Positions 9,778-52,555 of a stretch of DNA of 64,000 bases are shown here, piece by piece. Source of the stretch: Ignavibacteriales bacterium (GTDB lineage Bacteria; Bacteroidota; Ignavibacteria; UBA10030; UBA8401); NCBI GenBank assembly GCA_037443785.1, contig JBBINR010000013.1:9525-73524 (forward strand), in the 5' to 3' direction. Below the pieces are notes generated by a model that was given only the letters and a program-made list of their open reading frames with translations, ran no database searches and was not told the DNA's origin. Position 1 is the stretch's first letter; each line of letters opens with the position of its first letter. Position numbers and translations under genes: made by a program.

Positions 9778-11967
9778 TTACAAATTTTCAAAAATAAAGT
9801 TTGTGATAAGCGTAAAGAGATGGAGCCGAGTCGTGCCGCCATAAATTCCGTGATTTTTATTCGGATAATACATTGTGGAAAATTGCTTGTTCGCATTTTC
9901 CAGTGCATTGACAAAGTTCACCGAATTCTGAAAATGGACATTATCATCCCCTGTTCCATGAATCAATAAGAATTTCCCTTTTAATTTTCCGGCATGATTC
10001 ATCGGTGCACTAGCAGCATATCCTTCCGGATTATTCAAGGGTGTTCCCATATAACGTTCTGTATAGATGTTATCATAGAATTTCCAATTCGTTACCGGTG
10101 CAACGGCAACGGCAGTCTTAAAATAATCTGCACCAAGTAAGATTGTCATACTTGCCATATAACCGCCGTAACTCCATCCCCAAATCCCAATTCTATTTTT
10201 ATCGACATACGAAAGAGAAGCAAGATATTTTGCCCCTTCAATTTGATCGTTCACTTCCCACGTACCAAGATTCTTATAGGTGATTGTTTTGAACTTCGTA
10301 CCGCGTGCACCGGTCCCACGATTATCGACCATAAAAATCAAATACCCTTTCTGCACAAGCATCGAATACCACAAATAATTTGCACCACCCCATGAATTTC
10401 TTACGACTTGGGACCCCGGGCCTCCGTACGTGTAGACCAACACGGGATATTTTTTTGTAGAATCGAAATTTTGAGGCTTAATGAGACTTGCGTACAGTGT
10501 AACACTGTCAGTTGTCGTGAATGTAAAAAATGACGTTTGTGGAAGAGTGTACTCTTTCAAGGCACCATTTTCATTTGCCTCAACGACATATAATTCCTTT
10601 CCATCGTTCCTTACCATTCTTATTTGTGTCGGTGTTGAGTTATTGGAATAATATTCAAGAAAAGTTTCATAGGAAGGAGAAAAATTTGCTGAATGAGTTC
10701 CGGCGGTTCTCGTCAACTGTTTCTTTTTGCTTCCATCAAGTTTGCAGGAATACATCTGACGATCCATCGGCGATAATTCTGATGATGTAAAGTATACAAG
10801 GCCATTTTTCTCATCAACGCCATAGAACGCATCGACATCCCATTCCCCTTTTGTCACCTGATTGATCAGCGTTCCATCATTCTTATAACGATAGATATGC
10901 CGATAACCATCTCGTTCTGATGCCCACGTAAAAGTTCCATTCTTCAAAAAATGAAGATCGTCATGCACTTCAACCCACGTATCACTTTTTTCCGACACAA
11001 TTAACTTTTGCTGCCCAGATGTTGTATTGTAGAAAAACAATTCGATAAAATTCTGTTCCCGATTCAGACGCTGAACCGAAAGAATATTTTTTTCTCTCGT
11101 CCATTGTATCCTTGGAATATAAATATCGTTGTTCGATCCAAGGTCAAGCCACGTCATACTCCCATTTGCGAAATTATAGACGCCAATTTTAACAATTGAA
11201 TTCGGATCGCCAGCTTTCGGATATCGCATCGTCGTCAAACTCGGATGAGTAGAATCCCATTCCGTCAATGTGTATTCGGGAACACGGTTTTCGTCCAGCC
11301 GCCAAAAGGCAATCGCCGATCCATCCGGAGACCATTGCCATCCGTCGGAAATTCCGAATTCTTCTTCATAGACCCAATCAAATTTTCCATTGATGATATG
11401 TTCAGCACCATCGGACGTAATCTGAGTTTCTTTCGCCGTTGCAATATCATATACATAAATATTATTTCCTCGAACATAACCAATTTTCTTTCCATCAGGA
11501 GAAAACTTTTGATTGTATTGGGGAACATCGACGTTGGATAACCGTGTAAATGATTTTGTTCCGATCTCGTATAAAAAGAAATTCCCCGCAGGAGTTAATC
11601 GCGATAAATACTGCTTCTCGGGCGGAGCAGAAACAAATAAAATTTTCTTTTCATCCGGAGACCATTGATACGTTGTAAATTTAAATGTCGGATCATCGGA
11701 ATTTAATTTCAGCTGCGAGCCATTCACAATCAATTTTTTCGATTGATCTTTGACGAAAAATTGCATGACCGCCGTCGATTTTGAAATCGTATCGTTTTCC
11801 AAATACGTATACGATTTTCCATCGCTCATCCATTGAATTCCTCGAACGCTTTTCCCTGAAAATTTTCCTCCGCTCCAAATATCTTTCAACGTCCATTCCT
11901 TTTCTCCGGCTAACAGAACGGCACATGACAACACGAAGATTGCAAAAATCAATTTTATATTTTTCAT
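9778..11967 (-). CDS. S9 family peptidase, dipeptidyl-peptidase IV-like
   Basis: The ORF track extends to 12222, but that N-terminal extension is non-protein-like and overlaps the upstream gene. The real start is the ATG at 11967 (MKNIKLIFAIFVLSCAVLLA signal peptide). The product has a beta-propeller N-domain, the GWSYGG nucleophile motif, and D..VHF in the catalytic domain. Confidence 0.88.
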   Translation of the reverse strand: MKNIKLIFAIFVLSCAVLLAGEKEWTLKDIWSGGKFSGKSVRGIQWMSDGKSYTYLENDTISKSTAVMQFFVKDQSKKLIVNGSQLKLNSDDPTFKFTTYQWSPDEKKILFVSAPPEKQYLSRLTPAGNFFLYEIGTKSFTRLSNVDVPQYNQKFSPDGKKIGYVRGNNIYVYDIATAKETQITSDGAEHIINGKFDWVYEEEFGISDGWQWSPDGSAIAFWRLDENRVPEYTLTEWDSTHPSLTTMRYPKAGDPNSIVKIGVYNFANGSMTWLDLGSNNDIYIPRIQWTREKNILSVQRLNREQNFIELFFYNTTSGQQKLIVSEKSDTWVEVHDDLHFLKNGTFTWASERDGYRHIYRYKNDGTLINQVTKGEWDVDAFYGVDEKNGLVYFTSSELSPMDRQMYSCKLDGSKKKQLTRTAGTHSANFSPSYETFLEYYSNNSTPTQIRMVRNDGKELYVVEANENGALKEYTLPQTSFFTFTTTDSVTLYASLIKPQNFDSTKKYPVLVYTYGGPGSQVVRNSWGGANYLWYSMLVQKGYLIFMVDNRGTGARGTKFKTITYKNLGTWEVNDQIEGAKYLASLSYVDKNRIGIWGWSYGGYMASMTILLGADYFKTAVAVAPVTNWKFYDNIYTERYMGTPLNNPEGYAASAPMNHAGKLKGKFLLIHGTGDDNVHFQNSVNFVNALENANKQFSTMYYPNKNHGIYGGTTRLHLFTLITNFIFENL

Positions 11968-12055
11968 ATAACTCCTCTCAATATTTTCTCGCTCAAAGTA
12001 AGAAAGATAATTTCTGTGAACAAGGAAAAATTCAATAATGCTATATCCAAATAGA

Positions 12056-12092
12056 ATAAAAAACCTTGATAGTCGTAAAGACCTATCAAGGC
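12056..12092 (-). terminator. rho-independent terminator of the frameshifted OMP gene
   Basis: Hairpin ccttgatag-tcgtaaagac-ctatcaagg followed (minus orientation) by a T-run. Confidence 0.6.
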
Positions 12093-12127
12093 AAAATGAT
12101 TGATATTCCCATGACTTTCTAACTGCC

Positions 12128-13451
12128 CTACAAGCTGAACGATATTCCCATTGTGAAAGCAATACTATTCGCAGCAAACGGATATGGTGCGCCGCCAAAC
12201 TGTGGCTTGGATGGATCGCCATTGCCTATCTCAACATAATCTTTATTTTCTTCATACTCAGTAATTTTATACCGTACCGGCATGGACTTCAATTGATCGA
12301 TGCCATCAATGGTGTATTTGGTTATTTCCGTTCGTGTAATATAAAATGACGCAAGGGTCGCTTTCGCCTGCACAAAAAATGCTGCTCTTGGATTTATTGG
12401 GATATTGAATCCAATATATCCTTCATAGGCAAACGGAATTTTATTCGTGAGTTTCATTTCTTGTTCAAGTGTAGACGTATTTTGCGAAGAACCGGTATAT
12501 ATTTGTTTCATCCCAATTTTTAGATCGTTCTGTACTATTACTCCAACACCAGCACCACCATACGGCTGTAGATTCCCAATATTCGTTTTGAAATGCAATC
12601 CCGCCATAAGTGGAATACTGCTGTAGTTTATTGTCCGATCAACATTATAAGTATACGAACTAGGAGGGTTTGGCGAATTTGTTGATGTACTTGTATAATT
12701 ATATTTTGTCGTTGTGCTTCCGGAGGAATATCCTACCTGCAGGAAAAGGCCCGCTTGATCTTTAAAATAATAAATAATGTCTGCCTCAAACCTGATCCCT
12801 TCTCCGGCAGTTACATAAGTATCTTTTACATTATTATGTGAATAGGAATTAGTTCCAGTTCCACTATTATATGATGAAACGTAATCTTCGCTCGTGACCG
12901 GATTCCCCCCCCTGAGCAAACCCGTATCCACCGGAAACACGGACTTCGAATGATGGAATATTTTCTGAAGTATCCATCTTTGATGAAGATGTTATTGGCA
13001 ACGATGAACCTTCTTGAGCAAGATGTAATTCTTTTGGTCTTGGCGGTGGCGGGGTCCAACCGACTTCAGGGCCACCAACAATTTGAATTTTTGCCGGATC
13101 CTGCCCCATCACATAATTACCCGCAACGAGATCTTTATAATGATTAATTTTTTCAGCAAGCATAAAAAGCGACACTTCAGAGTAATCTACTTTTATCAGA
13201 GATTGCTGACCTTTGTCGTCAATAATTTCAACCTGTGCAAAATAGGTACTATCTGGCGCCCTATAGAACGCCGCACTGACAAAATTTTTAACTGACGGCA
13301 GAAGATGATAGTGTTCTTTTTCGGTCTGATCAATTGTTTCTCCGACAGCGTTGCTAATAATGATCACTCGAGCACTATCTTGTGCTTTCAGAAAAACGAC
13401 AGAGAGAATAATTACAAAGGAGAGAATGGAAGTAAAACGAAACTTTTTCAT
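12128..13451 (-). pseudogene. outer-membrane protein gene (signal peptide plus beta-barrel-like C-terminal half) interrupted by a frameshift in a G8 homopolymer
   Basis: Two overlapping minus-strand ORFs (12867..13451 with signal peptide MKKFRFTSILSFVIILSVVFLKAQ, and 12128..12940) lie in different frames. Together they span 1324 nt, which is not a multiple of 3. The frames switch at ccccccccc (12905..12912). Adding or removing one G joins ...VSGGYGFAQGG to NPVTSEDYVSS.... Confidence 0.7.
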
Positions 13452-26521: not shown

Positions 26522-27328
26522 ATGAAAAAAACAAAATTTTTTGCAATGGTCGTGCTTGTGGGGCTTTTTGCAATCGTGAACGGATGCAAAAAATCTGATA
26601 ACCCTGTTACGTCAGAAACATCAGGTACCGGAACTAATCTGGCGATAGGTTTTTCGAAAGTAAGTTCACATTCTGCTTTTGGAAAAGTCGCTGCCGTAGA
26701 TTCTCTCCGGATTGACAGCGTTATCGCAGTCCTTCAAAGAATAAAATTCGAAGTGAATATTGATACGGTAAAAGTTGATACCACCGGAAAAGATTCGGGA
26801 GATAGTGATCGAGATTCGAGCATTATATTTAGAGGCCCATTCATCATTCACGTTCGAGATTCAAACGCAGTAAATTTTGCGAACCAAGTTCTTCCGGCAG
26901 GAAATTACAGCGGTATTAAATTCAAAATTCATCGAATACTAAAAGGTGAAAAATATGAAGACAGCGATGAACACAACCATCATTCGACTGTCGCGAACAA
27001 CGATTCAATCATCGGATACAGCGTCGGTGTATGGGGCGCCATAAAGAAAAATGGCGTGTGGGTTCCGTTTGAATTTAAAACCAACATGGAATTGGAATTC
27101 AAAATAAAAGGAAACTTTACGATTACGACTTCGACGAGTACACTAAACATCGCTCTTCGATTCAACACAGGTGATTGGTTTAGAGATCTTAAGACTGGAT
27201 TTCTTTTAGATCCAACAGATGCAACTCAAAAAAATCAGGAGTTTATTAGAGAAGCAATTAAGAAGTCCTTCGAACAAGGCAGAGGCGGTCACGATAAAGA
27301 TCACGATGGACATCCTGACAACGATTAA
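26522..27328 (+). CDS. hypothetical lipoprotein with His/Asp-rich C-terminal tail
   Basis: 268 aa; signal peptide with lipobox (AIVNGC); C-terminus GRGGHDKDHDGHPDND. No family was recognised. Confidence 0.6.
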   Translation: MKKTKFFAMVVLVGLFAIVNGCKKSDNPVTSETSGTGTNLAIGFSKVSSHSAFGKVAAVDSLRIDSVIAVLQRIKFEVNIDTVKVDTTGKDSGDSDRDSSIIFRGPFIIHVRDSNAVNFANQVLPAGNYSGIKFKIHRILKGEKYEDSDEHNHHSTVANNDSIIGYSVGVWGAIKKNGVWVPFEFKTNMELEFKIKGNFTITTSTSTLNIALRFNTGDWFRDLKTGFLLDPTDATQKNQEFIREAIKKSFEQGRGGHDKDHDGHPDND

Positions 27329-30344: not shown

Positions 30345-31169
30345 TTGAAAAAATATCTCAACTTCATTAAGATCGAACATACTCTGTTCTCACTCCCAAT
30401 GATTTACAGTGGCGTATTTCTTGCGTCGCATGAAGCACCGTCGATTCGTTTATTGTTACTCGTTCTTGCCGCTGCAATCGGTGCACGGCTGGTTGCCATG
30501 ACATTAAATAGAATTGTTGATCGTGAAATCGACAAACACAACCCGCGAACGTTGAACCGCGAATTGCCAAGTGGAAAAATGAAATTGATTGAAAGCTATG
30601 CTGTTCTCATTTTGGGGTTATTGATGTACGTCGGTTCAGCAAAAATGATTTCCGATTTCTGTTTTTATCTTTCCCCAATTCCATTGATCGTATTCGTCGT
30701 GTATCCGTATCTAAAACGCTTTACGCCCCTTGCTCATTTCGGGGTCGGAATGGGATTGGCAATGGGTCCGCTGGGAGGTTTTTTTGCAGTTATTGGATCG
30801 ATGAATCGATTTGGAGAGGCATTGTTGCTTCCATTCTTTAATCTTTTTTGGGCAACTGGATTTGATATCATTTATTCGACGCTTGACGAAGAATTTGATA
30901 AAAAAGCGGGATTGTTTTCGTTTCCATCACGGTTCGGAAAAAAAAGAGCCCTGCAAATTTCCGGAGCGCTTCACATTCTTTCGTTCGTCACGCTGATTGC
31001 ATTAGTCATCATTTCATTGAAAGCGTTGATTGCACTACCATTCCTTCTTCTCAGCGGATTTTTGTTGTGGCTGGAACAGCACAAAGCTGAAGATGTTGAA
31101 CTGGCATTTTTTAAAATTAATATTGTTGTGGGATTTAGCATTTTGGTTATGATTTTAGTAAGTATTTAA
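30345..31169 (+). CDS. UbiA-family aromatic prenyltransferase (probably the menaquinone-pathway MqnP-like enzyme)
   Basis: 274 aa; NRIVDREIDKHNPRT (NDxxDxxxD) and a second Asp-rich motif; polytopic membrane protein. Confidence 0.8.
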   Translation: MKKYLNFIKIEHTLFSLPMIYSGVFLASHEAPSIRLLLLVLAAAIGARLVAMTLNRIVDREIDKHNPRTLNRELPSGKMKLIESYAVLILGLLMYVGSAKMISDFCFYLSPIPLIVFVVYPYLKRFTPLAHFGVGMGLAMGPLGGFFAVIGSMNRFGEALLLPFFNLFWATGFDIIYSTLDEEFDKKAGLFSFPSRFGKKRALQISGALHILSFVTLIALVIISLKALIALPFLLLSGFLLWLEQHKAEDVELAFFKINIVVGFSILVMILVSI

Positions 31170-31171
31170 AA

Positions 31172-31723
31172 ATGAAAATAGTCGTCGGCATAACAGGGAG
31201 TTCAGGTGCACTTTACGCGCTCGACTTTCTAAAAAAATCTCAATCAGAAAAATTTCTCGTTGTCAGCAAATGGGGAAAAGTTTTGCTGAAAGATGAATTG
31301 GGAAAATCGGAAGAAGATTTGCATCCGTACATCAAGCGCCAGTTTGATGACAAGGATCTTTCTGCACCGATCGCTTCCGGTTCAAACCACATCGATGCGT
31401 TTGTGATTCTTCCTTGCTCCACATCGACACTCGGAAAAATTGCTTCCGGCATTGGCGATTCGTTGATTACACGAACAGCGCAAGTATGCATGAAAGAACG
31501 ATATAAACTTATTTTGTGTGTCCGTGAAACACCGCTTTCAACCCTTGCTCTTGAACAATGTGCAAAACTTTCAAGTTATGGAGCGATTATTATGCCGATT
31601 TCCCCGCCAATGTACTTTGTTCCAAAATCTGTTGAAGAATTTGTCGGATCATTCACCGATAAATTGCTTGGAATTCTTGGAGAAAGAAATGCAAAAGGCT
31701 GGCGTGGTGAGGAACTGGAATAA
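31172..31723 (+). CDS. ubiX: UbiX-family flavin prenyltransferase
   Basis: 183 aa; MKIVVGITGSSGALYA N-terminal flavoprotein fold. Confidence 0.85.
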   Translation: MKIVVGITGSSGALYALDFLKKSQSEKFLVVSKWGKVLLKDELGKSEEDLHPYIKRQFDDKDLSAPIASGSNHIDAFVILPCSTSTLGKIASGIGDSLITRTAQVCMKERYKLILCVRETPLSTLALEQCAKLSSYGAIIMPISPPMYFVPKSVEEFVGSFTDKLLGILGERNAKGWRGEELE

Positions 31724-31738
31724 GATCGGAAGAGCATA

Positions 31739-33505
31739 ATGTTTGATAACTTACAAGATTTTGTAAAACATCTCGAAAAAAATGGCGAGCTTCATCGTGT
31801 AGAAGTCGAAGTTGATCCCGTATTGGAAATCACCGAGATCGCAACTCGCGCATTGAAGTTGGATAAACCCGCTCTTTTGTTTGAACGCGTAAAGGGTGCA
31901 AAATATCCACTGCTCATCAATCAACTTGCCAGTGACCGGCGGATTGAGCTTGCACTCGGTAAACATCCAGACGAACTTGGCGAAGAACTCATTTCATTCG
32001 CAGAAAAAATTTTACCTCCGTCTCCCAGAATTTTGTTTGAAGAATCTTCGATGATTCGCCGCTTGATCAATGCGCGTCCAAAAGAAGTTCGCATCGCTCG
32101 TTCGCAAGCGATTATTGAAAAACCAATGCTTTCGGATCTTCCAATTCTTAAAACATGGCCTCATGATGGCGGACGTTTTGTAACACTGCCTCAGGTTATT
32201 ACATACGATCCGATTACGCACAAAAGGAATATCGGAATGTACCGCATTCATGTGTTTGACGATCAAACGACAGGAATGCATTGGCAAATCCAGAAAGGCG
32301 GCGGCTTCCATTATTACCAAGCGGAAAAAATGAATCAACCGCTAGAAGTTGCGTTAGCAATCGGAACTGATCCCGCGCTTCTTCTTGCCACAGTAGCAGC
32401 GCTCCCGGAAGGAATTGATGAAGCAATGTTTGCAGCGTTCTTGCGCGGCAAGCCGACTGAATTTGTGAACGGTAGGACAATCAACATCAGCGTTCCGGCA
32501 AATGCAGAATTTATTTTTGAAGGAATTGTAAAACCAAAAGAGCGAAGAACGGAAGGCCCGTTTGGAGATCACTTCGGACATTATTCCAACGCGGCAGAAT
32601 TTCCGGTGTTTCATATTCAAACGATGACACACAGAAAAGATCCGATTTATCCCGCAACCATTGTCGGAATTCCCCCGATGGAAGATAAATTCATCGGCGA
32701 TGCCACTCAGCAAATTCTTGCTCCCCTGACGCGTTTGATACACCATGAGGTAAAAAATGTATGGGCGTATTACGAAGCAGGATTTCACAATCTTCTTGTC
32801 GTTTCAATTGAACAGCGCTATCAAAAAGAAGCGATGAAAGCGGCTCTTGGTTTGCTCGGCACCGGTCAATTGTCATTGACAAAATGTTTGATTGCCGTTT
32901 CTGAAAATGTCGACGTCCGGAATTTTAACGAAGTAATGAAAGCAGTGCGTGATAATTTTGACCCACATTTCGATTTTATCATGATTCCCAAAGTTCCTCT
33001 TGACACATTGGACTTTACCTCCTTCACGATGAATCTCGGCAGCAAGATGATTATCGACGCAACCGAAAAGAAAAAACCGAAGCGCAAAGTGAATATAAAA
33101 AAATTGAATGAAGTGGTAAAAAGTTTATCATCATTCGATAGAAGAATTATCGATGCGCGACTTATCGAAGGGGCGCTATTATTGCTCAAAGTGAAAAAAG
33201 AAGGCGATGCAGTCATCAAAAAAATTGTGAAGCATCCGGAACTCGAGGGCATTTCCATGGCGGCAACGGTGAGCTTCGACGTAGATATTAACGAACAAGA
33301 AAGTTATATTTGGGGTGTCTTTACCCGCTTTGATTGTGAACGGGATGTTCTTTTTACAGAACAAAAAATGATTGGTATTTCTCCTATCTACAACGGAATT
33401 CTCGGCATCGATGCGACATGGAAGAATGGATATCCTGACCCTCTCGTTATGGACGATGAGATTATAAAGAAGGTCGACGAACGCTGGGATAGTTACTGGC
33501 GGTAG
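31739..33505 (+). CDS. UbiD-family decarboxylase (menaquinone-pathway MqnL-like)
   Basis: 588 aa; UbiD core (GGRFVTLPQVITYDP, GMYR) with a longer C-terminus than classical UbiD. Confidence 0.78.
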   Translation: MFDNLQDFVKHLEKNGELHRVEVEVDPVLEITEIATRALKLDKPALLFERVKGAKYPLLINQLASDRRIELALGKHPDELGEELISFAEKILPPSPRILFEESSMIRRLINARPKEVRIARSQAIIEKPMLSDLPILKTWPHDGGRFVTLPQVITYDPITHKRNIGMYRIHVFDDQTTGMHWQIQKGGGFHYYQAEKMNQPLEVALAIGTDPALLLATVAALPEGIDEAMFAAFLRGKPTEFVNGRTINISVPANAEFIFEGIVKPKERRTEGPFGDHFGHYSNAAEFPVFHIQTMTHRKDPIYPATIVGIPPMEDKFIGDATQQILAPLTRLIHHEVKNVWAYYEAGFHNLLVVSIEQRYQKEAMKAALGLLGTGQLSLTKCLIAVSENVDVRNFNEVMKAVRDNFDPHFDFIMIPKVPLDTLDFTSFTMNLGSKMIIDATEKKKPKRKVNIKKLNEVVKSLSSFDRRIIDARLIEGALLLLKVKKEGDAVIKKIVKHPELEGISMAATVSFDVDINEQESYIWGVFTRFDCERDVLFTEQKMIGISPIYNGILGIDATWKNGYPDPLVMDDEIIKKVDERWDSYWR

Positions 33506-33550: not shown

Positions 33551-35413
33551 ATGAATTCAACAATATTTTTTAGAGATAAAAATTTACATCCTATATGGGA
33601 TAAAATTCAAAACGGCAAACGCCTCTCGCTCGCTGACGGCGTTACAATGTTCCAATCCAATGATGTGATTTCAATTGGAAAAATGGCAAGCATTGTTCAA
33701 CAGAAAAAAAGCGGAGACGCTGTCTATTACGTCCTCAATCAAAAAATTGAACCGACCAATGTGTGCGTTCTTTCCTGCAAATTTTGTGACTTCGCTGCAA
33801 AGCAAGGAACTGAACGTGCGTACGAGATGACGATCGAAGAAATTCTTTCGAAACTCACGCCTGACATTCATGAAGTGCACATCACGGGCGGCTTGCATCC
33901 GGATTGGGAATGGAAATATTACCTCAATATGGTTCGTGAAATAAAAAAGAATTTTCCGAACACCGACGTAAAAGCATTCACTGCTGTTGAAATAGATTTC
34001 TTTCACAAAAAATTTAAACTGCCTATTGAAGAAGTGCTCCGGCAATTATATGATGCCGGCCTTCGAACAATGCCGGGCGGAGGCGCAGAAGTTTTTTCGG
34101 AACGCGTTCGCAAACTTCTCTTTAATCAAAAGATCGGCGCGAAGACGTGGTTTGAAGTTCATAAGACCGCTCACAAACTTGGAATCCCGACAAATTCTAC
34201 GCTTCTGTATGGTCACATCGAAACATATGAAGAGCGGACAAATCATTTTATAAAATTGCGTGAAGCACAGGATGAAACCGGCGGATTCCTTACATTTATT
34301 CCGCTTGCATTTCAGCCAGGCGACACAGGAATAAAACCGAAGAACGAATTTACTTCTGCAATTGAAGATCTCAAAACGATTGCCATTTCTCGTTTGATGC
34401 TCGACAATTTCAACCACATCAAAGCATATTGGGTGATGTTAACAGAAGAAGTTGCATCCATTGCATTGAATTTTGGCGCAGATGATATGGATGGAACCGT
34501 GGGTGGGGAAAAAATTGCTCACGATGCCGGTGCGACATCGCCAATGACAATGGCAAAAGATCAATTGATAAAAATTATTAAAGATGCAGGAAAAATTCCG
34601 GTCGAGCGCGATGTCTATTACAATCCGTTAAATGTCTCTACTGAAAATGTTATTGGAAAGATTCCGTATCTCAATTCCGTCCCCTTCTACGAATTTTTTG
34701 AACAGCGACAATTCAAAATACTCCCCGTTGCACCGCGGCGCATGGGCGTTCTTTCAAAACAAAATCAGCTTGATGCGGGATTGTTCTCACTTATGGATTA
34801 CTTTGCGCAGCAAGAGAACCTTGAGTTGATGAATTTTTGCATTTCGTCGCGCGATCAGGTAAAAAGTGTGATGCTCTTTTCGAAAGAAGGCTGGCAAGGA
34901 CTTCAGGGAAAAAATATCGGCATCATTGATGATACTGCAACGTCCGTTCGCTTGCTCCAAGTATTATTGGAAAAGAAATACAAAGTGAAGGCAAATTTTA
35001 TGCGGATGCATGCCGGCATCAATGATTATTCACGATTTGACGCGGTTTTATTAATCGGAGATGAAGCATTAAAAGCATACAAAGCCGGATTGCCAAATTT
35101 TGAACTCGTATACGACCTGGCAAAAGAATGGTATGACTGGCAAAAACTTCCCTTCGTATTCGCCGTGTGGGCACACAAGCGTTTGATGACGGAAGATAAA
35201 AAAACAGATTTACATGAAATTATTCAACACGGTTTGGAACGCGGTGAGGCCCAACTGGATAAAATTGGTTTTCTCCACGGGAAAAAAATCGACTTTTCGC
35301 CGAAAGAAACAACGGAATATTTGGAAGGATTTAATTACCGCCTGGGCGAACGTGAGAGAGAAGCGATGAAGGCATTCAAAAAATTCGTTGAACAAGTTGA
35401 AGTAAGTTTGTAA
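33551..35413 (+). CDS. fusion protein: radical-SAM MqnE/MqnC-type enzyme (probably aminofutalosine synthase) at the N-terminus and a MqnA-like (chorismate dehydratase, VitK2_biosynth family) domain at the C-terminus
   Basis: 620 aa in one continuous frame. Residues 1 to about 360 carry NVCVLSCKFCDFA (CxxxCxxC radical-SAM cluster) and end with the family-typical ...PVERDVYYN. Residues from about 365 onward begin IGKIPYLNSVPFYEFF, the signature N-terminus of MqnA/MqnD-fold proteins. Confidence 0.7.
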   Translation: MNSTIFFRDKNLHPIWDKIQNGKRLSLADGVTMFQSNDVISIGKMASIVQQKKSGDAVYYVLNQKIEPTNVCVLSCKFCDFAAKQGTERAYEMTIEEILSKLTPDIHEVHITGGLHPDWEWKYYLNMVREIKKNFPNTDVKAFTAVEIDFFHKKFKLPIEEVLRQLYDAGLRTMPGGGAEVFSERVRKLLFNQKIGAKTWFEVHKTAHKLGIPTNSTLLYGHIETYEERTNHFIKLREAQDETGGFLTFIPLAFQPGDTGIKPKNEFTSAIEDLKTIAISRLMLDNFNHIKAYWVMLTEEVASIALNFGADDMDGTVGGEKIAHDAGATSPMTMAKDQLIKIIKDAGKIPVERDVYYNPLNVSTENVIGKIPYLNSVPFYEFFEQRQFKILPVAPRRMGVLSKQNQLDAGLFSLMDYFAQQENLELMNFCISSRDQVKSVMLFSKEGWQGLQGKNIGIIDDTATSVRLLQVLLEKKYKVKANFMRMHAGINDYSRFDAVLLIGDEALKAYKAGLPNFELVYDLAKEWYDWQKLPFVFAVWAHKRLMTEDKKTDLHEIIQHGLERGEAQLDKIGFLHGKKIDFSPKETTEYLEGFNYRLGEREREAMKAFKKFVEQVEVSL

Positions 35414-35448
35414 ATTAACTAACAGTAATTTTTCAATAGTGCGATATA

Positions 35449-36318
35449 ATGGATCAACAACTTCTACACAAAATTCAAGAACTTGTCGGACAAGGCGAGA
35501 AATTAATTCCTGAAGGCGGGTTGGAATTTTCCGGCTATAATGCAAAGATGCAAAGCCAATATTTATTATGGCGGAAAAACTGTCTTGATACCCTTTCAAA
35601 AGCAGGTGAAAAAATTACTCCGTTGCGCGAGAAAGTAACGAAAGATGAAAACGGAGCGTATTTCTATCAGAATTCAGCGCAATTAATCGTCGACGTGTTG
35701 AAGCAATCCTTACCATTGGTAGAAGCGGAAGTAAAGAAAAACTCAAAACCCGTCGGTGCAAATCTAAAACCTTCATTTGAAGCAGCAAAGGAACCAGCTA
35801 TGGAACCCGCAAAAGCTCAACCGAAGCCCGCACCACAACCGAAAGTTGATCCCACTCCTGCACCTGAACCAAAAGTTCAACCGGCATCTGCTCCAGTTCA
35901 AAAACAACCGGCAGCATCGCCATCGGCAAGCAGTAAAGAAGTTTTTGTGTTATCATCGTCCGAATCTGAGCTGCAAAACCAGTTAACCTCTTTTCTGAAG
36001 GAAATTGGAATTGAATCGATTGCATTCCAGCGCGGCACCGCGATTGATGCGATCGTTTCTTTCCTTGATAAACATCCAAATATCAAATACGCGTACTACC
36101 TCTTCAACGCTGAAGATATGAACAACGCGATGTTTGAACTCGGCTATCTCGCCGGAAAAATCGGGACAGGAAGAATTTGCTGCGTCCATAAAAAAGAAGA
36201 TGCTCCGCCAAAAGGCATTCCTGGAATTACTTATAAAGAGATCGTTGTGAAGTTGGAAGAGATCAGTTTTGGACTTATTAAGGACCTGAAAGCGGCGGGA
36301 TATACTGTAACGATCTGA
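35449..36318 (+). CDS. TIR-like domain protein (COG4271/PF10137-type) with an unknown N-terminal domain and a Pro/Ala-rich linker
   Basis: 289 aa. The C-terminal ~125 aa read VFVLSSSESELQNQLTSFL...AYYLFNAEDM...FELGYLAGKIGTGRICCV..PKGIPGITYKE, matching the TIR-like predicted nucleotide-binding domain pattern. The linker is EPAKAQPKPAPQPKVDPTPAPEPKVQPASAP. It sits 35 and 33 bp from the flanking mqn genes. Confidence 0.7.
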   Translation: MDQQLLHKIQELVGQGEKLIPEGGLEFSGYNAKMQSQYLLWRKNCLDTLSKAGEKITPLREKVTKDENGAYFYQNSAQLIVDVLKQSLPLVEAEVKKNSKPVGANLKPSFEAAKEPAMEPAKAQPKPAPQPKVDPTPAPEPKVQPASAPVQKQPAASPSASSKEVFVLSSSESELQNQLTSFLKEIGIESIAFQRGTAIDAIVSFLDKHPNIKYAYYLFNAEDMNNAMFELGYLAGKIGTGRICCVHKKEDAPPKGIPGITYKEIVVKLEEISFGLIKDLKAAGYTVTI

Positions 36319-36351
36319 CATCCTCCTAAATTTTAATAACTTTTTTTATTA

Positions 36352-37449
36352 ATGATGAATCTTGCCGATTTATATTCCAAAATCCGTAGCGGGCAGCGTA
36401 TCGACCGCGAAGAAGGATTGTTTGTTTTCCGCAATGCACAATTGCTTGATCTTGGCGACCTTGCCAACGAAATTCGATTCAAGAAAAATCCTCTCCCGCA
36501 AGTAACATTCGTGCTCGACTCAAATCCAAATTATACCAATGTGTGCACAATCGATTGCATCTTTTGCGCATTCTACCGTCATCCCGGTGAAGAAGGCGTT
36601 TATACGCACACGGTCGATGAGATGATTCAAAATTTCAAGCAGTCGGCGGCAAAAGGAATTACGACCATTCTGCTTCAAGGCGGTGTCAATCCTGAATTAC
36701 CGTTTGACTATTATCTTGAAATGGTATCACGCACGATCAAAGAAGTTCCGCAAATTCACCCACACTTCTTCTCGACGTCAGAAATTTTGGAGATGTCGCG
36801 CGTTTCTGGTTTGTCTCTTATCGATACATTAAAAAAATTGTGGGACGCCGGATTGCGCTCCATACCCGGCGGCGGTGCGGAAATTCTTTCGGACCGCGTA
36901 AAGAAAAAAATCAGCAGCAAAAAAGGAACGTCGGCAGATTGGTTGAATGTCATGCGTGAAGCGCATAAGCTCGGATACAAAACGACCGCAACGATGATGT
37001 ACGGACATCTTGAAAAAGATGAAGACATTATCGAGCATCTCGAAGTCATTCGACAGCTTCAAGACGAATATCACGGATTTACTGCATTTGTTCCGTGGAG
37101 TTTTAAACCTGGAAATACTCCTCTTGAAAAAATAATCCCTACATATGCAACCCCCAAACGGTATCTTGAAATGATAGCATTCTCAAGAATCTACCTCGAT
37201 AATTTTGATCACGTTCAAGCCTCATGGTTTAGCGAAGGAAAAAAGACAGGACAGATTGCGCTTCATTTTGGTGCAGATGATTTTGGTGGAACACTGCTCG
37301 AGGAGAATGTCCATGCGGCGGCAAATTTTGTGAACAAGACAAATACCGAAGAATGTATCTCTCTCATTCACGAATCAGGTTTTGATGCAGCCCAACGAGG
37401 GACGCTGTATGAGATCAAAAAAGTTATTTCGAAAACAAAAGCGGCTTAA
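36352..37449 (+). CDS. mqnC: radical-SAM menaquinone biosynthesis enzyme, MqnC/MqnE family (probably cyclic dehydroxyfutalosine synthase)
   Basis: 365 aa; NYTNVCTIDCIFCAFYR motif and the family-typical C-terminal half. The MqnC versus MqnE assignment is uncertain. Confidence 0.75.
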   Translation: MMNLADLYSKIRSGQRIDREEGLFVFRNAQLLDLGDLANEIRFKKNPLPQVTFVLDSNPNYTNVCTIDCIFCAFYRHPGEEGVYTHTVDEMIQNFKQSAAKGITTILLQGGVNPELPFDYYLEMVSRTIKEVPQIHPHFFSTSEILEMSRVSGLSLIDTLKKLWDAGLRSIPGGGAEILSDRVKKKISSKKGTSADWLNVMREAHKLGYKTTATMMYGHLEKDEDIIEHLEVIRQLQDEYHGFTAFVPWSFKPGNTPLEKIIPTYATPKRYLEMIAFSRIYLDNFDHVQASWFSEGKKTGQIALHFGADDFGGTLLEENVHAAANFVNKTNTEECISLIHESGFDAAQRGTLYEIKKVISKTKAA

Positions 37450-45177: not shown

Positions 45178-45882
45178 ATGGACAAATTACAACAAACAGC
45201 AGATCAATTTAAGTCTAAATTACTAAGTGGGGGTCAGAGAAAGGGTTTTGCCACAATTATAAGGGGTGCAAAATCTCGCAAAGAAAGAGAAAAGCATATT
45301 GAAATGTTAAAAACTTGGAACGGTGCAGTTGAATATGAACGGCAAAAGTTAGAAAAGAAAATTTTATCCAGTAAAAATCCTGCCGTTTTAGATCTTCAAA
45401 AATCCAGCTTAAACAACATTTCGTCTTCATTGACAACTCTTGTAAATGGTGACCGCGAATTAAACTATTTAAATATTATTAGTTTAGAAATATTGTTTTA
45501 TAACATAAATAGATTGGTAAGTTATTGTGAGCACGCGAGCAGGATGAAAGGTTCTAATGACATGTACGCTTCGCTTATCGGTGTTATTGAAACACTAAAT
45601 CAGAAGTCAAAGATTAGCATTCAAGAACTTCAAGAAAAACTTAAAAAATTTGATAAAACAAAATATGATAAAGATGTTTTTAAAAGGGCTACCGCAAGAT
45701 ATAATAATGCCAGAGGATACGACAAACACTATGGAAGATGTCTTCTTACCGAGCTTAAATATAGTCGGGTTGATTTATCGAAAAATTTTGAAGAAAGCGA
45801 AGAGTTCATGGACTGGAATAATGCCTATAAAAAATATCGAAGCTCGCAATATCGGGTGAAATCGAATTCACCTAAGAAGTGA
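45178..45882 (+). CDS. hypothetical basic (Lys/Arg-rich) protein, no recognised domain
   Basis: 234 aa, visibly AT-rich coding sequence, predicted coiled-coil segments, no TM helix. Convergent with the DUF3800 gene. Confidence 0.5.
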   Translation: MDKLQQTADQFKSKLLSGGQRKGFATIIRGAKSRKEREKHIEMLKTWNGAVEYERQKLEKKILSSKNPAVLDLQKSSLNNISSSLTTLVNGDRELNYLNIISLEILFYNINRLVSYCEHASRMKGSNDMYASLIGVIETLNQKSKISIQELQEKLKKFDKTKYDKDVFKRATARYNNARGYDKHYGRCLLTELKYSRVDLSKNFEESEEFMDWNNAYKKYRSSQYRVKSNSPKK

Positions 45883-46181: not shown

Positions 46182-47117
46182 TTATCTTGAGTTCGCATGT
46201 GTTGAGACCGATGTCGTAGATGCTTTATGTGAAGCACATATCTTGCAAGGGCACGAGGAAGATGTGAAATGACGAACTCCGACAACTTTCCCATCTTTTT
46301 TATCGGCGATTTTAAATATTTCATTGAATAGATAGTCTTCATCATTATCTAAATATCTTCGTAAAGAATAACTACATACGTCAGCAATTTGAACCATACT
46401 TGTTAATTGAGAATCAACAAACAATGGTGTCTCAATAATATTTTGAATATCAGTCCATAGTGTACCTTTACGATGGAATGATTTCATTAATTCGGTGTGT
46501 TTTTTACATATTGTTTCATTATTGTCGTGTATTAATAATCCATATTGCTTGACATTTGTATTTTTGGTGAAGATTTTTAAATATTGTTCAAATCGAGACA
46601 CTAATTGTTCAAATGCTTGAACGTCAATTGTTGATGTTGCAATGGTAGGATTGAAATGTATTTTGTCAATACATTCGGCGAATAAACGACTAAAACCACC
46701 CCAAGAACCTATTAATTTTGCAATGTCTAAAATTAATTGTTTTCTCTCTTTATAAGAGAGATGAATATACGATTGTGTTTTTCGGTAATTCTTTTTTGTT
46801 TTATAATAAAGTTTTTGATTTTTCGACCCTTGTAATCGAAGCAATTCATTGTTCCGATACTTTTCAACCTCACGTCGCCGTGTTGCATAATCTAATTGAT
46901 CAAAATTATTAATTTTATTCTGCTCTAAATAAGCACGAATTATTTCACCCGTATGAATTTCTTCGGTTTGAAGATTGTATTTTTGCTTAATTGAATATAT
47001 ATCGTTTTCACATTGTTTCCATTTAGAGATTGGTATTGCAATACCAGCTAATACGAAATGTTTTGAATTTCCTGGGATTGAAGATGTGCCTGATTCGTCG
47101 ATATAGCAGAATATCAT
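46182..47117 (-). CDS. DUF3800 family protein
   Basis: 311 aa. The N-terminus MIFCYIDESGTSS...HFVLAGIAI, the HTGE motif and the C-terminal QIADVCSYSLRRY are the conserved DUF3800 signatures. Confidence 0.7.
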   Translation of the reverse strand: MIFCYIDESGTSSIPGNSKHFVLAGIAIPISKWKQCENDIYSIKQKYNLQTEEIHTGEIIRAYLEQNKINNFDQLDYATRRREVEKYRNNELLRLQGSKNQKLYYKTKKNYRKTQSYIHLSYKERKQLILDIAKLIGSWGGFSRLFAECIDKIHFNPTIATSTIDVQAFEQLVSRFEQYLKIFTKNTNVKQYGLLIHDNNETICKKHTELMKSFHRKGTLWTDIQNIIETPLFVDSQLTSMVQIADVCSYSLRRYLDNDEDYLFNEIFKIADKKDGKVVGVRHFTSSSCPCKICASHKASTTSVSTHANSR

Positions 47118-47439
47118 ATAGCCCCTATAAAAAAAAAGCGACTGGTTTTAGGGATTTAATCCCATAATTGAGACGCTTAGCGACTCTTACCAGACGCAAT
47201 TCAATTTTATTAAAAAATTGGTGCTATGTCAAGTGAAAATAGAACAATTTTTATATAAAATCTTACGGAATTTGATTGTTATTGGTTGCGATGTTTTTCC
47301 GCATGTTTTGATTCAGGCTTTTAAAAACACTTACTGTAAAAATTTACAGTTTTGTTCATTTCTTCTTCTTTGAAGGTACCTGCATTATTTTTCTCAACGC
47401 TTCTTTAACATCGTATGGAAATAAGGATATTGGTTTTTC

Positions 47440-48500
47440 ATTCGTTCTTTTTTTCTCTCCGTCTTCCTTTTGTAAGCGTTGAGTTTTATGAGTCCGCGTA
47501 TTTGAGTCTTTTACCTTCAAAGCCTGCCAATGCCTTTAATGTTCGTTCGTGATCGTCAATCTTCCTATTGTTGTATCTGAAATCAAATTCAGCAAGGTAT
47601 CTGTGTAAGTGTTCTTTGGAAACATGATGATACACACCGTTGATACCCCTTTTAAATATACTAAAAAATCCCTCAACGGTGTTAGTATAAACATTTCCGC
47701 GAACGTATTCATAGTGGCTATGTATTACCGTTTTATGAGAAGCAAAATCTTTTCCAATGTCTTTATACAAATGCAATTCATCGGTCATTAAGTTAGCCGT
47801 TGGATGAATGTTCTTTGTTAAGACTTCTCGCAAGTTTGTAGCGGAAACAGTAGGAACAACGAAAGAACGGACTTTACCGTCACGCTGAACCAAAGAAACA
47901 ACCGGGACTTTATTTTCTAATCCTGTAGCATTTCCCATTCTTCTACGTCGTCCGCCAACATAAGTCTCGTCAGCTTCTACCGTTCCTTTGAGTTTTCCGA
48001 AATGACCTTGCTCCATTGCATAGCGGACTCTGTGAGCCATGAACCACGCGGTCTTATAGGTTATACCTAATTGCCTATGCAGTTGATGTGCAGACATCCC
48101 TTTTTTAGAGGAACATAAAAGAGTAATCGCTTGTAACCATTGAGAAAGCGGAATGTGAGAATCTTCAAAGATAGTCCCAACTGTTACCGTGAATTGATTG
48201 CTTGTTTTATTCTTTCTGCAATCCTTACAACGGTATAAACCTTTACGGATTTTCTTTTCAGGATTAGCTTCTACCTTCACAACTTCGGTACTGCCACAAC
48301 GCGGGCAACATACATCGTCAGCCCAACGAATGCTTTCTAAAAGCTCTCTGGCTTGATCTTCTTTCCCAAAGTCTTTTGCAAGTCCTTTTAGGGTAAGAAC
48401 CTTTTCGTCTGTTGTTTTCTTCTTCATGGCATTATTCCTTTTTTAACTCACTTCAATATACAATTTTTCGAGTGGTTTGTCAAGTATATAATTGCCAATA
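47440..48500. mobile_element. IS1595-family insertion sequence (boundaries approximate)
   Basis: It contains a single IS1595-type transposase gene. The terminal inverted repeats could not be defined by eye. Confidence 0.55.
47486..48427 (-). CDS. IS1595 family transposase
   Basis: 313 aa; N-terminal zinc ribbon (CPRCGS...CKDCRK) followed by a DDE domain of the ISXO2/IS1595 type. Confidence 0.85.
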   Translation of the reverse strand: MKKKTTDEKVLTLKGLAKDFGKEDQARELLESIRWADDVCCPRCGSTEVVKVEANPEKKIRKGLYRCKDCRKNKTSNQFTVTVGTIFEDSHIPLSQWLQAITLLCSSKKGMSAHQLHRQLGITYKTAWFMAHRVRYAMEQGHFGKLKGTVEADETYVGGRRRRMGNATGLENKVPVVSLVQRDGKVRSFVVPTVSATNLREVLTKNIHPTANLMTDELHLYKDIGKDFASHKTVIHSHYEYVRGNVYTNTVEGFFSIFKRGINGVYHHVSKEHLHRYLAEFDFRYNNRKIDDHERTLKALAGFEGKRLKYADS

Positions 48501-51649: not shown

Positions 51650-52555
51650 ATGAAAAAAGATTTCCTCTCAATCGCAGATTTATCAAAGGAAGAAGTTTTT
51701 GAGCTTCTTGACCTGGCTGATTCTTTGAAAATAAAGAAAGAATTGAAGCCGCTGGCAGGAAAAACAGTCGCAACAATTTTCCAAAAACCTTCTTTGCGAA
51801 CACGTGTTTCATTTGAAGTCGGTATTATTCAGTTAGGCGGACATGCCATTTTTCTGACAGATGATGGCGTAGGACTCGGCAAACGTGAGTCTGCGTTAGA
51901 TGTTGCGCATGTTCTTTCGCGATTCAACGACGGAATTGTTGCGCGCGTATTCGATCATCAATTATTGCTCGACCTTGCGAAGCATGCAACCGTTCCGGTC
52001 ATCAACGCCCTTTCCGATCTCTCGCACCCGTGTCAAATTCTTGCCGATCTTTACACGATACGGCAGCACAAAAAATTGCGTGATCATGTCAAAATCGCGT
52101 ACGTCGGAGATGGAAACAACATCGTCAATTCGTGGCTTGAGCTGTCCTCAATCATTCCGCTTCATTTGACTTTGGCGATTCCGCACGGGTATGAACCGGA
52201 CAAAACGATTTATGATAAGGCACAGAATTCCCGTGTCAGTAAGATCGAAATAATTCGTGACCCCAAAAATGCCGTGAATAAAGCCGATGTTGTCTATACC
52301 GACACATGGACGAGCATGGGGCAGGAAAGTGAAAGAACGAAACGTATTTACGACTTCTGGGAATATCAAGTGAATACACCGTTGACCCGCCATGCAAAGG
52401 AGGATGTCCTTGTAATGCACTGTCTTCCTGCACACCGCGGCGAAGAAATTACGAGCGAAGCCCTGGACGGAAAACAATCCGTTGTAAATGATCAAGCGGA
52501 AAATCGTCTTCATATCCAAAAAGCGATCATGGCAAAGTTGATAGGAATAGTATGA
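51650..52555 (+). CDS. argF: ornithine (or N-acylornithine) carbamoyltransferase
   Basis: 301 aa; SLRTRVSFE (STRTR carbamoyl-phosphate motif) and HCLP. The plain versus acyl-ornithine substrate is not resolved. Confidence 0.8.
   Translation: MKKDFLSIADLSKEEVFELLDLADSLKIKKELKPLAGKTVATIFQKPSLRTRVSFEVGIIQLGGHAIFLTDDGVGLGKRESALDVAHVLSRFNDGIVARVFDHQLLLDLAKHATVPVINALSDLSHPCQILADLYTIRQHKKLRDHVKIAYVGDGNNIVNSWLELSSIIPLHLTLAIPHGYEPDKTIYDKAQNSRVSKIEIIRDPKNAVNKADVVYTDTWTSMGQESERTKRIYDFWEYQVNTPLTRHAKEDVLVMHCLPAHRGEEITSEALDGKQSVVNDQAENRLHIQKAIMAKLIGIV

Follow-up and report, generated by a model that had tools for sequence, protein, structure and literature searches.

A TIR-like protein of probable defence origin, kept in the menaquinone operon of uncultured Ignavibacteria

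Introduction

To our knowledge, nearly all bacterial TIR proteins described so far are NADases of phage defence or producers of signals, and TIR domains that became non-enzymatic adaptors are considered a feature of animals. Here, we describe a gene for a TIR-like protein embedded in the menaquinone biosynthesis operon of an Ignavibacteriales bacterium (GenBank assembly GCA_037443785.1). It is found on a stretch of 64,000 nucleotides of contig JBBINR010000013.1 (positions 9,525 to 73,524, forward strand), which is referred to as the window throughout. The protein, called TIRL here, descends from a TIR-type defence protein that entered the operon once; its tentative interpretation is that it was fixed there and re-used, probably without canonical NADase activity. 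A protein in public data from metagenome-assembled genomes (MAGs), P0001, is 100% identical to it. The gene and its immediate neighbours are arranged as follows.

33551..35413, plus strand: upstream neighbour, MqnE (aminofutalosine synthase) fused to a PF02621 MqnA/D-type domain, 620 aa
35449..36318, plus strand: TIRL, ATG start, 289 aa, two-domain protein derived from a TIR-type defence protein
36352..37449, plus strand: downstream neighbour, MqnC (cyclic dehypoxanthinyl futalosine synthase), TIGR03699 452 bits (cutoff 428.1)

TIRL is separated from mqnE::mqnA by 35 bp (35414-35448) and from mqnC by 33 bp (36319-36351). An earlier sequence-only reading had placed the open reading frame (ORF) within the same-strand mqn gene run with exactly these coordinates and gaps.

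Closest described systems and comparison with TIRL

The NAD+ pocket of a CAP12-type TIR domain has been described for SfSTING by electron cryomicroscopy. Here, the nicotinamide stacks against F6, W33, F37 and L47, the phosphodiester and ribose are kept in place by S10, R78 and N80, and E84 serves for catalysis, with D110 of the dimer mate completing the site (PMC9402430). The CC-loop of this TIR clade additionally bears an extra β-hairpin, which includes R78 and N80 (PMC9402430, PMC13142454). With the TIR effectors of the cyclic oligonucleotide-based antiphage signalling system (CBASS; Cap12/TIR-STING) and of Pycsar (PycTIR; PDB 7un8, 9lmq, 8jsj), TIRL shares the catalytic Glu on helix αC, E84 corresponding to E230, and the start FVLSSSE of its TIR domain resembles FIGSSKE of Cap12, including F6 and S10. 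In contrast to these effectors, TIRL has neither a cyclic-nucleotide sensor domain nor a cyclase partner, and the R78/CC-loop hairpin as well as D110, which complete the NAD+ pocket of SfSTING, are absent from it (PMC9402430). Of the kinship with CBASS and Thoeris effectors proposed in the sequence-only reading, the part concerning CBASS Cap12 holds and extends to Pycsar, whereas Thoeris has to be dropped, as ThsB belongs to a different Pfam family (PMC13142454).

A further relative is the PADLOC family PDC-S35 (N-terminal helical module and PF10137 TIR domain), itself only a candidate for a single-gene phage-defence system. TIRL and PDC-S35 proteins share the same two-domain layout with both domains homologous (BLASTP 6e-29 to a PDLC05005 member), as well as the motifs GG....GYN...Q..Y..WR, G.YFY..SA, FELGY and LK.AG. 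However, PDC-S35 profiles are reached by the C-terminal half of TIRL only, TIRL lacks the HGHD motif after β1, the CC-loop of about 15 residues and the P-S-D motif or has other residues in their place, and a spacer of 60-300 aa (family range) has been inserted. Moreover, TIRL is fixed in a housekeeping operon and not scattered.

For a TIR domain of enzymatic lineage that is retained in a role independent of NAD+ cleavage, the animal adaptors MyD88, MAL and TRIF/TRAM offer an analogy only. For the Dictyostelium proteins TirB and TirD, acquired from bacterial CAP12/Pycsar TIRs, no processing of NAD+ was seen, and TirD toxicity was independent of the Glu (PMC13142454). All of these are eukaryotic and act in immunity or signalling, whereas TIRL is bacterial and encoded in a biosynthetic operon. 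MqnB/MTAN (PF01048), finally, resembles TIRL only in the operon position that such a step would take and in the general chemistry, i.e. N-glycosidic cleavage of adenosine-type compounds; in sequence and fold, the two are unrelated. Literature searches on futalosine with TIR, on Ignavibacteria with mqn or futalosine, and on PDC-S35 returned nothing relevant.

Domain architecture and defence ancestry

The TIRL gene can be divided into three parts.

35449..35742, plus strand: N-terminal four-helix module, aa 1-98 (AlphaFold2 model, orthologue alignment)
35743..35928, plus strand: Pro/Ala/Lys-rich linker, aa 99-160, predicted to be disordered (predicted local distance difference test, pLDDT, <50)
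35929..36315, plus strand: degenerate CAP12/Pycsar-type TIR-like domain, aa 161-289

The AlphaFold2 model, built on 80 orthologues, comprises a confident four-helix N-domain (helices 2-19, 32-51, 54-64 and 73-98; pLDDT ~85-96), a disordered linker and a confident α/β C-domain, of which the last ~30 residues are modelled poorly. The TIR-like homology of the C-terminal part, already proposed from the letters alone, was borne out by profile searches. For Pfam PF10137 ('CAP12/Pycsar effector protein, TIR domain'), a match to residues 165-264 was obtained with E=2.3e-9, its 37.7 bits exceeding the gathering score of 24.7, and residues 153-288 match the PADLOC profile PDC-S35 with E=3.8e-18, at profile positions 110-260 only, the N-domain alone being unmatched. 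Given these two scores, the TIR-like match is well above chance. All motifs quoted for it previously, VFVLSSSE, AYYLFNAEDM, FELGYLAGKIGTGRICCV and PKGIPGITYKE, are found in TIRL. Divergent orthologues located in the same operon slot (L050, L051; loci of relatives carry L numbers) fall below the PF10137 model. In a sequence profile search of the PDB with the whole TIRL family, the best Cap12 match reached E=1.6 only; hence, the link between TIRL and Cap12 was made through a canonical intermediate.

The N-terminal module (aa 1-98) matched no Pfam, NCBIfam or PADLOC family, in agreement with the sequence-only reading, which could not place it. Among the 80 orthologues, two of its loops are invariant, P21-x-G23-G24-x-E26-x-S28-G29-Y30-N31-A32-K33 and N68-G69-x-Y71-F72-Y73-Q74-x-S76. 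The module is rare: when the N-domain alone was compared by phmmer, exhaustively, to 1.84 billion representative proteins, only 50 representative clusters matched. Outside the operon clade, it is fused to PF10137 TIR, TIR_2/ThsB-like, DpnII/MboI-type restriction endonuclease or Abi_C domains, the fusions to the latter three kinds being found outside the window in proteins P0167, P0180, P0162 and P0157. Single-protein defence systems are usually built in this way, with one constant N-terminal module and effectors that can be exchanged, and the N-module is apparently an undescribed sensor-type module of such systems.

The Pro/Ala/Lys-rich nature of the linker was recognised correctly beforehand, with 16 Pro, 13 Ala and 8 Lys among its 62 residues. 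In orthologues, linkers are hypervariable, ranging from ~30 to ~300 aa and being either Pro/Ala/Lys-rich or Glu/Arg-rich. The linker coding region also contains a weak 12-bp repeat (35779-35813).

Defence ancestry is illustrated by L056 from a Zixibacteria MAG, one of two exceptional loci among 49 (see below), which encodes the nearest full-length relative outside the operon clade. Its 258-aa protein aligns with TIRL over the full length (BLASTP 6e-29) and is a complete PDC-S35 member (PDLC05005 E=1e-78, aa 9-257) with a canonical PF10137 domain (E=3e-39). The gene adjoins a PD-(D/E)XK-like gene and is distant from any mqn gene. In a neighbour-joining analysis of the N-domain, all 200 of 200 bootstraps unite the operon-linked TIRL proteins in one group; therefore, the gene entered once. 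Taken on this sequence evidence, TIRL is a defence-derived protein with a single entry into the operon.

A hotspot for insertions is located between mqnE::mqnA and mqnC. In relatives devoid of TIRL, this gap contains a RelB-like antitoxin with a ParE toxin gene (L068:2432-2921), two ParE-type toxin genes with partner ORFs (L066:7860-9273), a PDDEXK_3 (GxxExxY-type) gene (L089:7812-8337), or ORF6N and DUF6994 genes (L086:6518-8152). This explains how a defence-type gene could reach the mqn operon. Hence, the suggestion of a defence or toxin gene hitch-hiking in a housekeeping operon is well taken with regard to origin, for which the PDC-S35 relative and the ParE/RelB, PD-(D/E)XK and ORF6N genes in the slot speak. 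As a description of the present state, however, it does not fit a gene that holds its slot in 47 of 49 loci over three subclades at dN/dS values (ratio of non-synonymous to synonymous substitution rates) of ~0.05-0.09, with half of the composite site gone. As a separate observation at this position, an MFS-like transporter gene parts MqnE from MqnA in L103 (L103:2721-4008).

Degeneration of the catalytic site

Residues of SfSTING were mapped to TIRL via a canonical PDC-S35 intermediate, the chain numbering in the alignment being offset by +8. Two positions of the window gene are of particular relevance.

36136..36138, plus strand: codon of E230, the TIR catalytic glutamate position (E84 of SfSTING; alignment chain, PMC9402430)
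36208..36216, plus strand: P254-K255-G256, replacing the canonical P-S/T-D motif (pairwise alignment with a PDC-S35 protein, SfSTING chain)

The alignment of E230 with E84 follows the motif chain RDNVVFEFG / RQNVIFELGY / NNAMFELGY. This residue is invariant in the 80 main-clade orthologues and in the proteins of a sister family (L048-type, see below). The catalytic Glu of TIR NADases, which the earlier reading had named as a point to check, is thus present at the E84 position in most members, but Ala takes its place in all 11 clusters of a divergent subclade (xELMALGY), where the rest of the domain is still conserved.

Two other elements of the composite site are lost throughout the TIRL family. 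R78 and the CC-loop hairpin are absent from TIRL owing to a deletion of ~15 residues relative to the canonical relative, and the dimer-mate D110 of SfSTING is replaced by G256. Elsewhere in the TIRL family, the position of the P-S/T-D motif reads PKN, PKS, PKG, LPA or LGE. The equivalent of N80 is N226 in TIRL and Ser in most orthologues. By inspection, the residues following β1 are also unconserved among orthologues (SSSESE, SAANNP, ADADNP, EENDPL), and the F6 and S10 equivalents show free variation. Across the subclades, only G232, G236, E271, L280 and G284 of the C-domain are invariant, whereas the motifs of the N-domain are kept in all of them.

Conservation in the operon slot

Full-length TIRL orthologues retrieved by protein search form 258 clusters with 46-79% identity, all of them from MAGs of uncultured Ignavibacteria, Ignavibacteriales or 'Bacteroidota'; a few orthologue records titled as other phyla are probably mis-binned. 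Gene order was counted on contigs of one genome per species (GTDB), giving 49 loci with a TIRL relative. In 47 of these, TIRL is located between mqnE::mqnA and mqnC, both neighbours being visible in 44 and the contig ending on one side in three. The mqnE::mqnA gene is directly upstream in 46 of the 49 loci; the contig of L028 starts within TIRL, so that the slot is marked by mqnC alone. On metagenome contigs, the six-gene core is the same and the outer flanking genes differ.

The slot is likewise occupied in the more distant branches of the family. Members of the divergent subclade (11 clusters) have Glu/Arg-rich or acidic linkers of up to ~300 aa and score below the Pfam threshold, yet they are still found in the slot. 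The L048-type sister family, with 509 hits from Ignavibacteria MAGs, occupies it in L060, L061 and several metagenome loci. Across the three deep subclades even MqnE::MqnA is just 60-75% identical, and the TIRL slot is unchanged. The sequence-only reading had tied universal conservation at this operon position, together with absence of the catalytic Glu, to a structural role; position is indeed near-universal within the clade, but the Glu is lost in some members only.

Both TIRL domains are under strong purifying selection. Over 21 pairs with unsaturated dS, the median of dN/dS was 0.087 in the N-domain and 0.051 across the last 66 codons, and for L048-type proteins the proportions of non-synonymous and synonymous differences (pN and pS) are 0.05-0.18 and 0.47-0.84, respectively. 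At the protein level, TIRL is 47-66% identical between species loci compared to 80-90% for the flanking enzymes. The N-module is its most conserved part, with identities of up to ~90%.

Separability of TIRL from the futalosine pathway

Upstream of mqnE::mqnA, the gene run of the window comprises three further genes.

30345-31169, plus strand: UbiA/MqnP prenyltransferase (family assignment by profile)
31172-31723, plus strand: UbiX flavin prenyltransferase (family assignment by profile)
31739-33505, plus strand: UbiD-type menaquinone decarboxylase (TIGR03701 above cutoff)

The synteny of this part (30345..33505) is also seen in the loci of relatives. Four species, which are monophyletic with 80% bootstrap support, carry reduced loci instead, in which MetRS and TIRL genes are followed by Amidohydro_2 and UbiE genes on the opposite strand.

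L048:9896-12638: reduced locus
L059, L062 and L063, around 10001-12900: reduced loci

Here, mqnP, the UbiX and UbiD genes, mqnE::mqnA, mqnC and mqnD are gone from the locus, and TIRL is intact and under purifying selection. Their relatives L060 and L061 have the full operon around TIRL at the same place, L061 also including mqnD. The cultured Ignavibacterium album possesses a complete classical menaquinone (men) pathway (PMC3362086), so a switch to this pathway is plausible for the reduced-locus genomes.

Separation has also occurred in the opposite direction. By scanning metagenome contigs with the MqnE::MqnA fusion, the fused operon was also found devoid of TIRL. In L069, L070, L076, L078, L092, L085, L100, L106 and L125, mqnC follows 23-77 bp after mqnE::mqnA according to tblastn coordinates. 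A TIRL-less clade, with a distance of 23-50 bp between these genes, is nested among TIRL carriers. In the MqnE::MqnA tree, it is monophyletic at 86% and is joined to the main and divergent clades with 60% support, and only 0.5% of bootstraps have the TIRL-bearing operons exclude it. This nested position indicates a secondary loss of TIRL that left the operon intact. More distant lineages carry the fused operon without TIRL as well. Since losses are found both ways, the operon without TIRL and TIRL without the operon, gene and pathway are separable. For the same reason, the idea of a nucleotide-sensing regulator of quinone synthesis, raised in the sequence-only reading, is weakened.

Possible roles of TIRL

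The evolutionary course which would best account for these data, tentative as it is, starts from a single-protein system of the PDC-S35 kind, in which a four-helix sensor or partner-binding module was combined with a CAP12/Pycsar-type TIR NADase. This ancestor would have landed in the short mqnE::mqnA-mqnC gap, a repeated recipient of small selfish or defence genes, and would then have been fixed in the ancestor of a large Ignavibacteria-type clade. Subsequently, the sensor-like N-module would have been held near constant, a long flexible spacer inserted between the domains, and elements of the composite NAD+ site lost from the TIR domain, namely the CC-loop with R78 and the dimer-mate D110, in one subclade also the Glu. 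TIRL would thus no longer deplete NAD+ but act as a tethered two-module adaptor. Its N-module may bind a conserved partner or ligand, and its degenerate TIR module may bind without cleaving, be it to itself or to an adenine-nucleotide-like ligand. The menaquinone operon would drive its expression, and the role of TIRL would be co-expressed with menaquinone synthesis without being required by it. What the sequences show is the homology and domain layout, the single origin, the fixed slot under purifying selection, the loss of named active-site residues and the separability from the mqn genes; loss of NADase activity, the adaptor or binding mode and any physiological link to quinone or respiration are inferred.

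Several observations weigh against such a non-enzymatic role. TIRL keeps F166, S170, N226 and E230 as equivalents of F6, S10, N80 and E84. TIR NADases outside the CAP12 clade require little beyond the Glu and oligomerisation, so that some NADase activity may persist in the Glu-bearing TIRL clades. Where Ala has replaced the catalytic Glu, another Glu three residues upstream, about one helical turn away, is invariant and could compensate for the loss. Fold searches leave TIR unresolved from other flavodoxin-like folds, and the model of TIRL is confident for each domain separately only (predicted template modelling score 0.43). The adaptor idea itself is drawn by analogy with the non-enzymatic TIR adaptors of animals.

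According to a first alternative, TIRL continues to function as an effector of immunity or abortive infection: its N-module would sense infection and, upon oligomerisation, the TIR domain would cleave NAD+, the stability of the gene being owed only to its seat in a well-expressed essential operon. Descent from a defence-type family with a retained sensor-like N-module, a catalytic Glu without exception in the main clade and the L048-type proteins, the F6, S10 and N80 equivalents of the window protein and a slot that attracts toxin and defence genes would all suit such an effector, and the clade that lost TIRL adds a degree of patchiness. However, defence genes normally show rapid turnover in variable islands, whereas TIRL has kept one syntenic slot over three deep subclades, with the putative sensor as its most conserved and not as a fast-evolving part. 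The composite CAP12-type site has lost R78, the CC-loop and D110, Glu has given way to Ala in one subclade despite continued constraint there, and sensor and effector are parted by 60-300 aa of disordered or charged spacer compared to ~15-25 aa in canonical relatives. A working effector is, hence, regarded as unlikely.

Alternatively, TIRL might be a dedicated menaquinone accessory factor, i.e. a scaffold or regulator contacting MqnE::MqnA, MqnC or MenG/UbiE, for example to couple flux to adenine-dinucleotide or redox state. The tight same-strand spacing of 35 and 33 bp fits this, as does L005, where TIRL and mqnE::mqnA overlap by 19 bp. Promoter- or terminator-like sites within the gene run are not in excess over shuffled sequence, the slot has been conserved over a very long time, and in the reduced loci TIRL stays beside the Amidohydro_2 and UbiE/MenG genes. 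Nevertheless, at least four monophyletic species keep TIRL under purifying selection after the mqn genes left the locus, a clade nested among carriers keeps the fused operon without TIRL, and distant lineages have that operon without TIRL too, which renders a dedicated accessory role rather improbable.

The location of TIRL exactly between the genes for aminofutalosine formation (MqnE) and for consumption of dehypoxanthinyl futalosine (DHFL; MqnC) also raises the question whether it could substitute for the nucleosidase MqnB. No PF01048 gene was found among 20 mid-sized ORFs of the window scanned, and TIRL itself has no PF01048 match at E<=1, its fold being flavodoxin/TIR-like. With E. coli MTAN as query, which in a validation against the PDB detects the H. 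pylori aminofutalosine nucleosidase at 1e-33, no MTAN-like ORF was detected in 875 kb of operon neighbourhoods nor in 80 further loci, these scans covering locus flanks of <=10 kb. The slots of TIRL-less operons also hold no MTAN homologue. As these sister and outgroup operons have nothing MqnB-like in the slot, the MqnB-like step must be encoded elsewhere. TIRL as an MqnB replacement was downgraded, considering slots that are empty or filled with toxin-antitoxin genes in TIRL-less operons, the reduced loci and the subclade with the Glu-to-Ala exchange. A Cu-oxidase_4 gene was rejected as an alternative nucleosidase, being present in just four loci of one subclade. This gene (PF02578, YfiH/FAMIN-type purine nucleoside enzyme) is confined to the divergent subclade, where it is three genes away from ubiE.

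L057:15696-16400, minus strand: Cu-oxidase_4 gene; also present in L050, L051 and L054

That TIRL acts as a non-homologous N-ribosyl hydrolase in place of MqnB/MTAN, with an adenosine-type product of both adjacent radical-SAM enzymes as substrate and its TIR glutamate removing adenine or hypoxanthine to convert aminofutalosine or futalosine into DHFL or to clear 5'-deoxyadenosine, is very improbable: TIR chemistry does consist in cleavage of a ribosyl N-glycosidic bond (PMC9402430), the operon position and the negative MTAN searches are in line with it, and a discarded phosphodiester-binding Arg (R78) would suit and be dispensable for a substrate without diphosphate, but operons of the same architecture manage without TIRL and without anything MqnB-like in the slot, TIRL is kept where the futalosine genes left the locus and the family's cultured member uses the classical men pathway (PMC3362086), Ala replaces the Glu in one in-slot subclade, putative pocket residues are unconserved between subclades, and both a long disordered linker and the faster evolution relative to the flanking enzymes are atypical of a pathway enzyme.

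Further features of the operon and the window

Some properties of neighbouring genes deserve mention in their own right. In the MqnE::MqnA fusion, the MqnE part (aa 15-359) scores 474.8 bits with TIGR03700 (cutoff 434.55), and PF02621 covers aa 368-613. The fusion is retained in relatives down to ~54-60% identity, with stand-alone MqnE found in more distant ones. The UbiD-type decarboxylase (31739-33505, plus strand) has 588 aa, and the available models stop at about residue 440, leaving a C-terminal extension of ~145 aa; its orthologues have 588-605 aa.

Within the L048-type clade, a PF04909 Amidohydro_2 gene (309 aa) is conserved beside mqnD and ubiE and stays with ubiE after the loss of the mqn genes.

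L061:11942-12865, minus strand: Amidohydro_2 (PF04909)
L059:10918-11847, minus strand: Amidohydro_2 (PF04909); further copies in L074, L090 and L093

Since the Amidohydro_2 family includes non-oxidative aromatic decarboxylases, this protein may be an unrecognised menaquinone-related enzyme. The position held by Amidohydro_2 is taken in the main (50%) and divergent clades by a gene for a 288-aa membrane protein (PF13748 ABC_membrane_3, without ATPase domain) between mqnC and mqnD-ubiE.

L003:10444-11310, minus strand: ABC_membrane_3 protein
L057:12143-13009, minus strand: ABC_membrane_3 protein; also in L005 and L007

Altogether, 22 tblastn matches to this protein were obtained, which represent ~17 distinct places, as several loci duplicate one contig and L044 gives two fragments.

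Further away in the window, an IS1595-family transposase gene (47486-48427) adjoins a DUF3800 gene (46182-47117). This pair (46182-48427, minus strand) lies just upstream of an arginine-biosynthesis run, in which ornithine carbamoyltransferase is encoded at 51650-52555. For three ORFs of 194-268 aa, no Pfam match reached E<=0.001.

12867-13451, minus strand: ORF without Pfam family
26522-27328, plus strand: ORF without Pfam family
45178-45882, plus strand: ORF without Pfam family

Implications

For menaquinone biochemistry, the message is a negative but useful one: TIRL, conserved 'operon member' as it is, is probably not the missing MqnB. For defence biology, the N-module common to TIR, nuclease and Abi_C effectors represents a candidate sensor domain. 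What is unusual in TIRL is its class-wide vertical fixation in a biosynthetic operon combined with partial decay of the catalytic site, and the case brings its own natural controls in the form of clades without the gene and clades without the surrounding operon. If the interpretation as a re-used defence protein is true, TIRL would be a clear bacterial case of a domesticated immune effector, a CAP12/Pycsar-type TIR kept in a housekeeping operon across a class-level clade.

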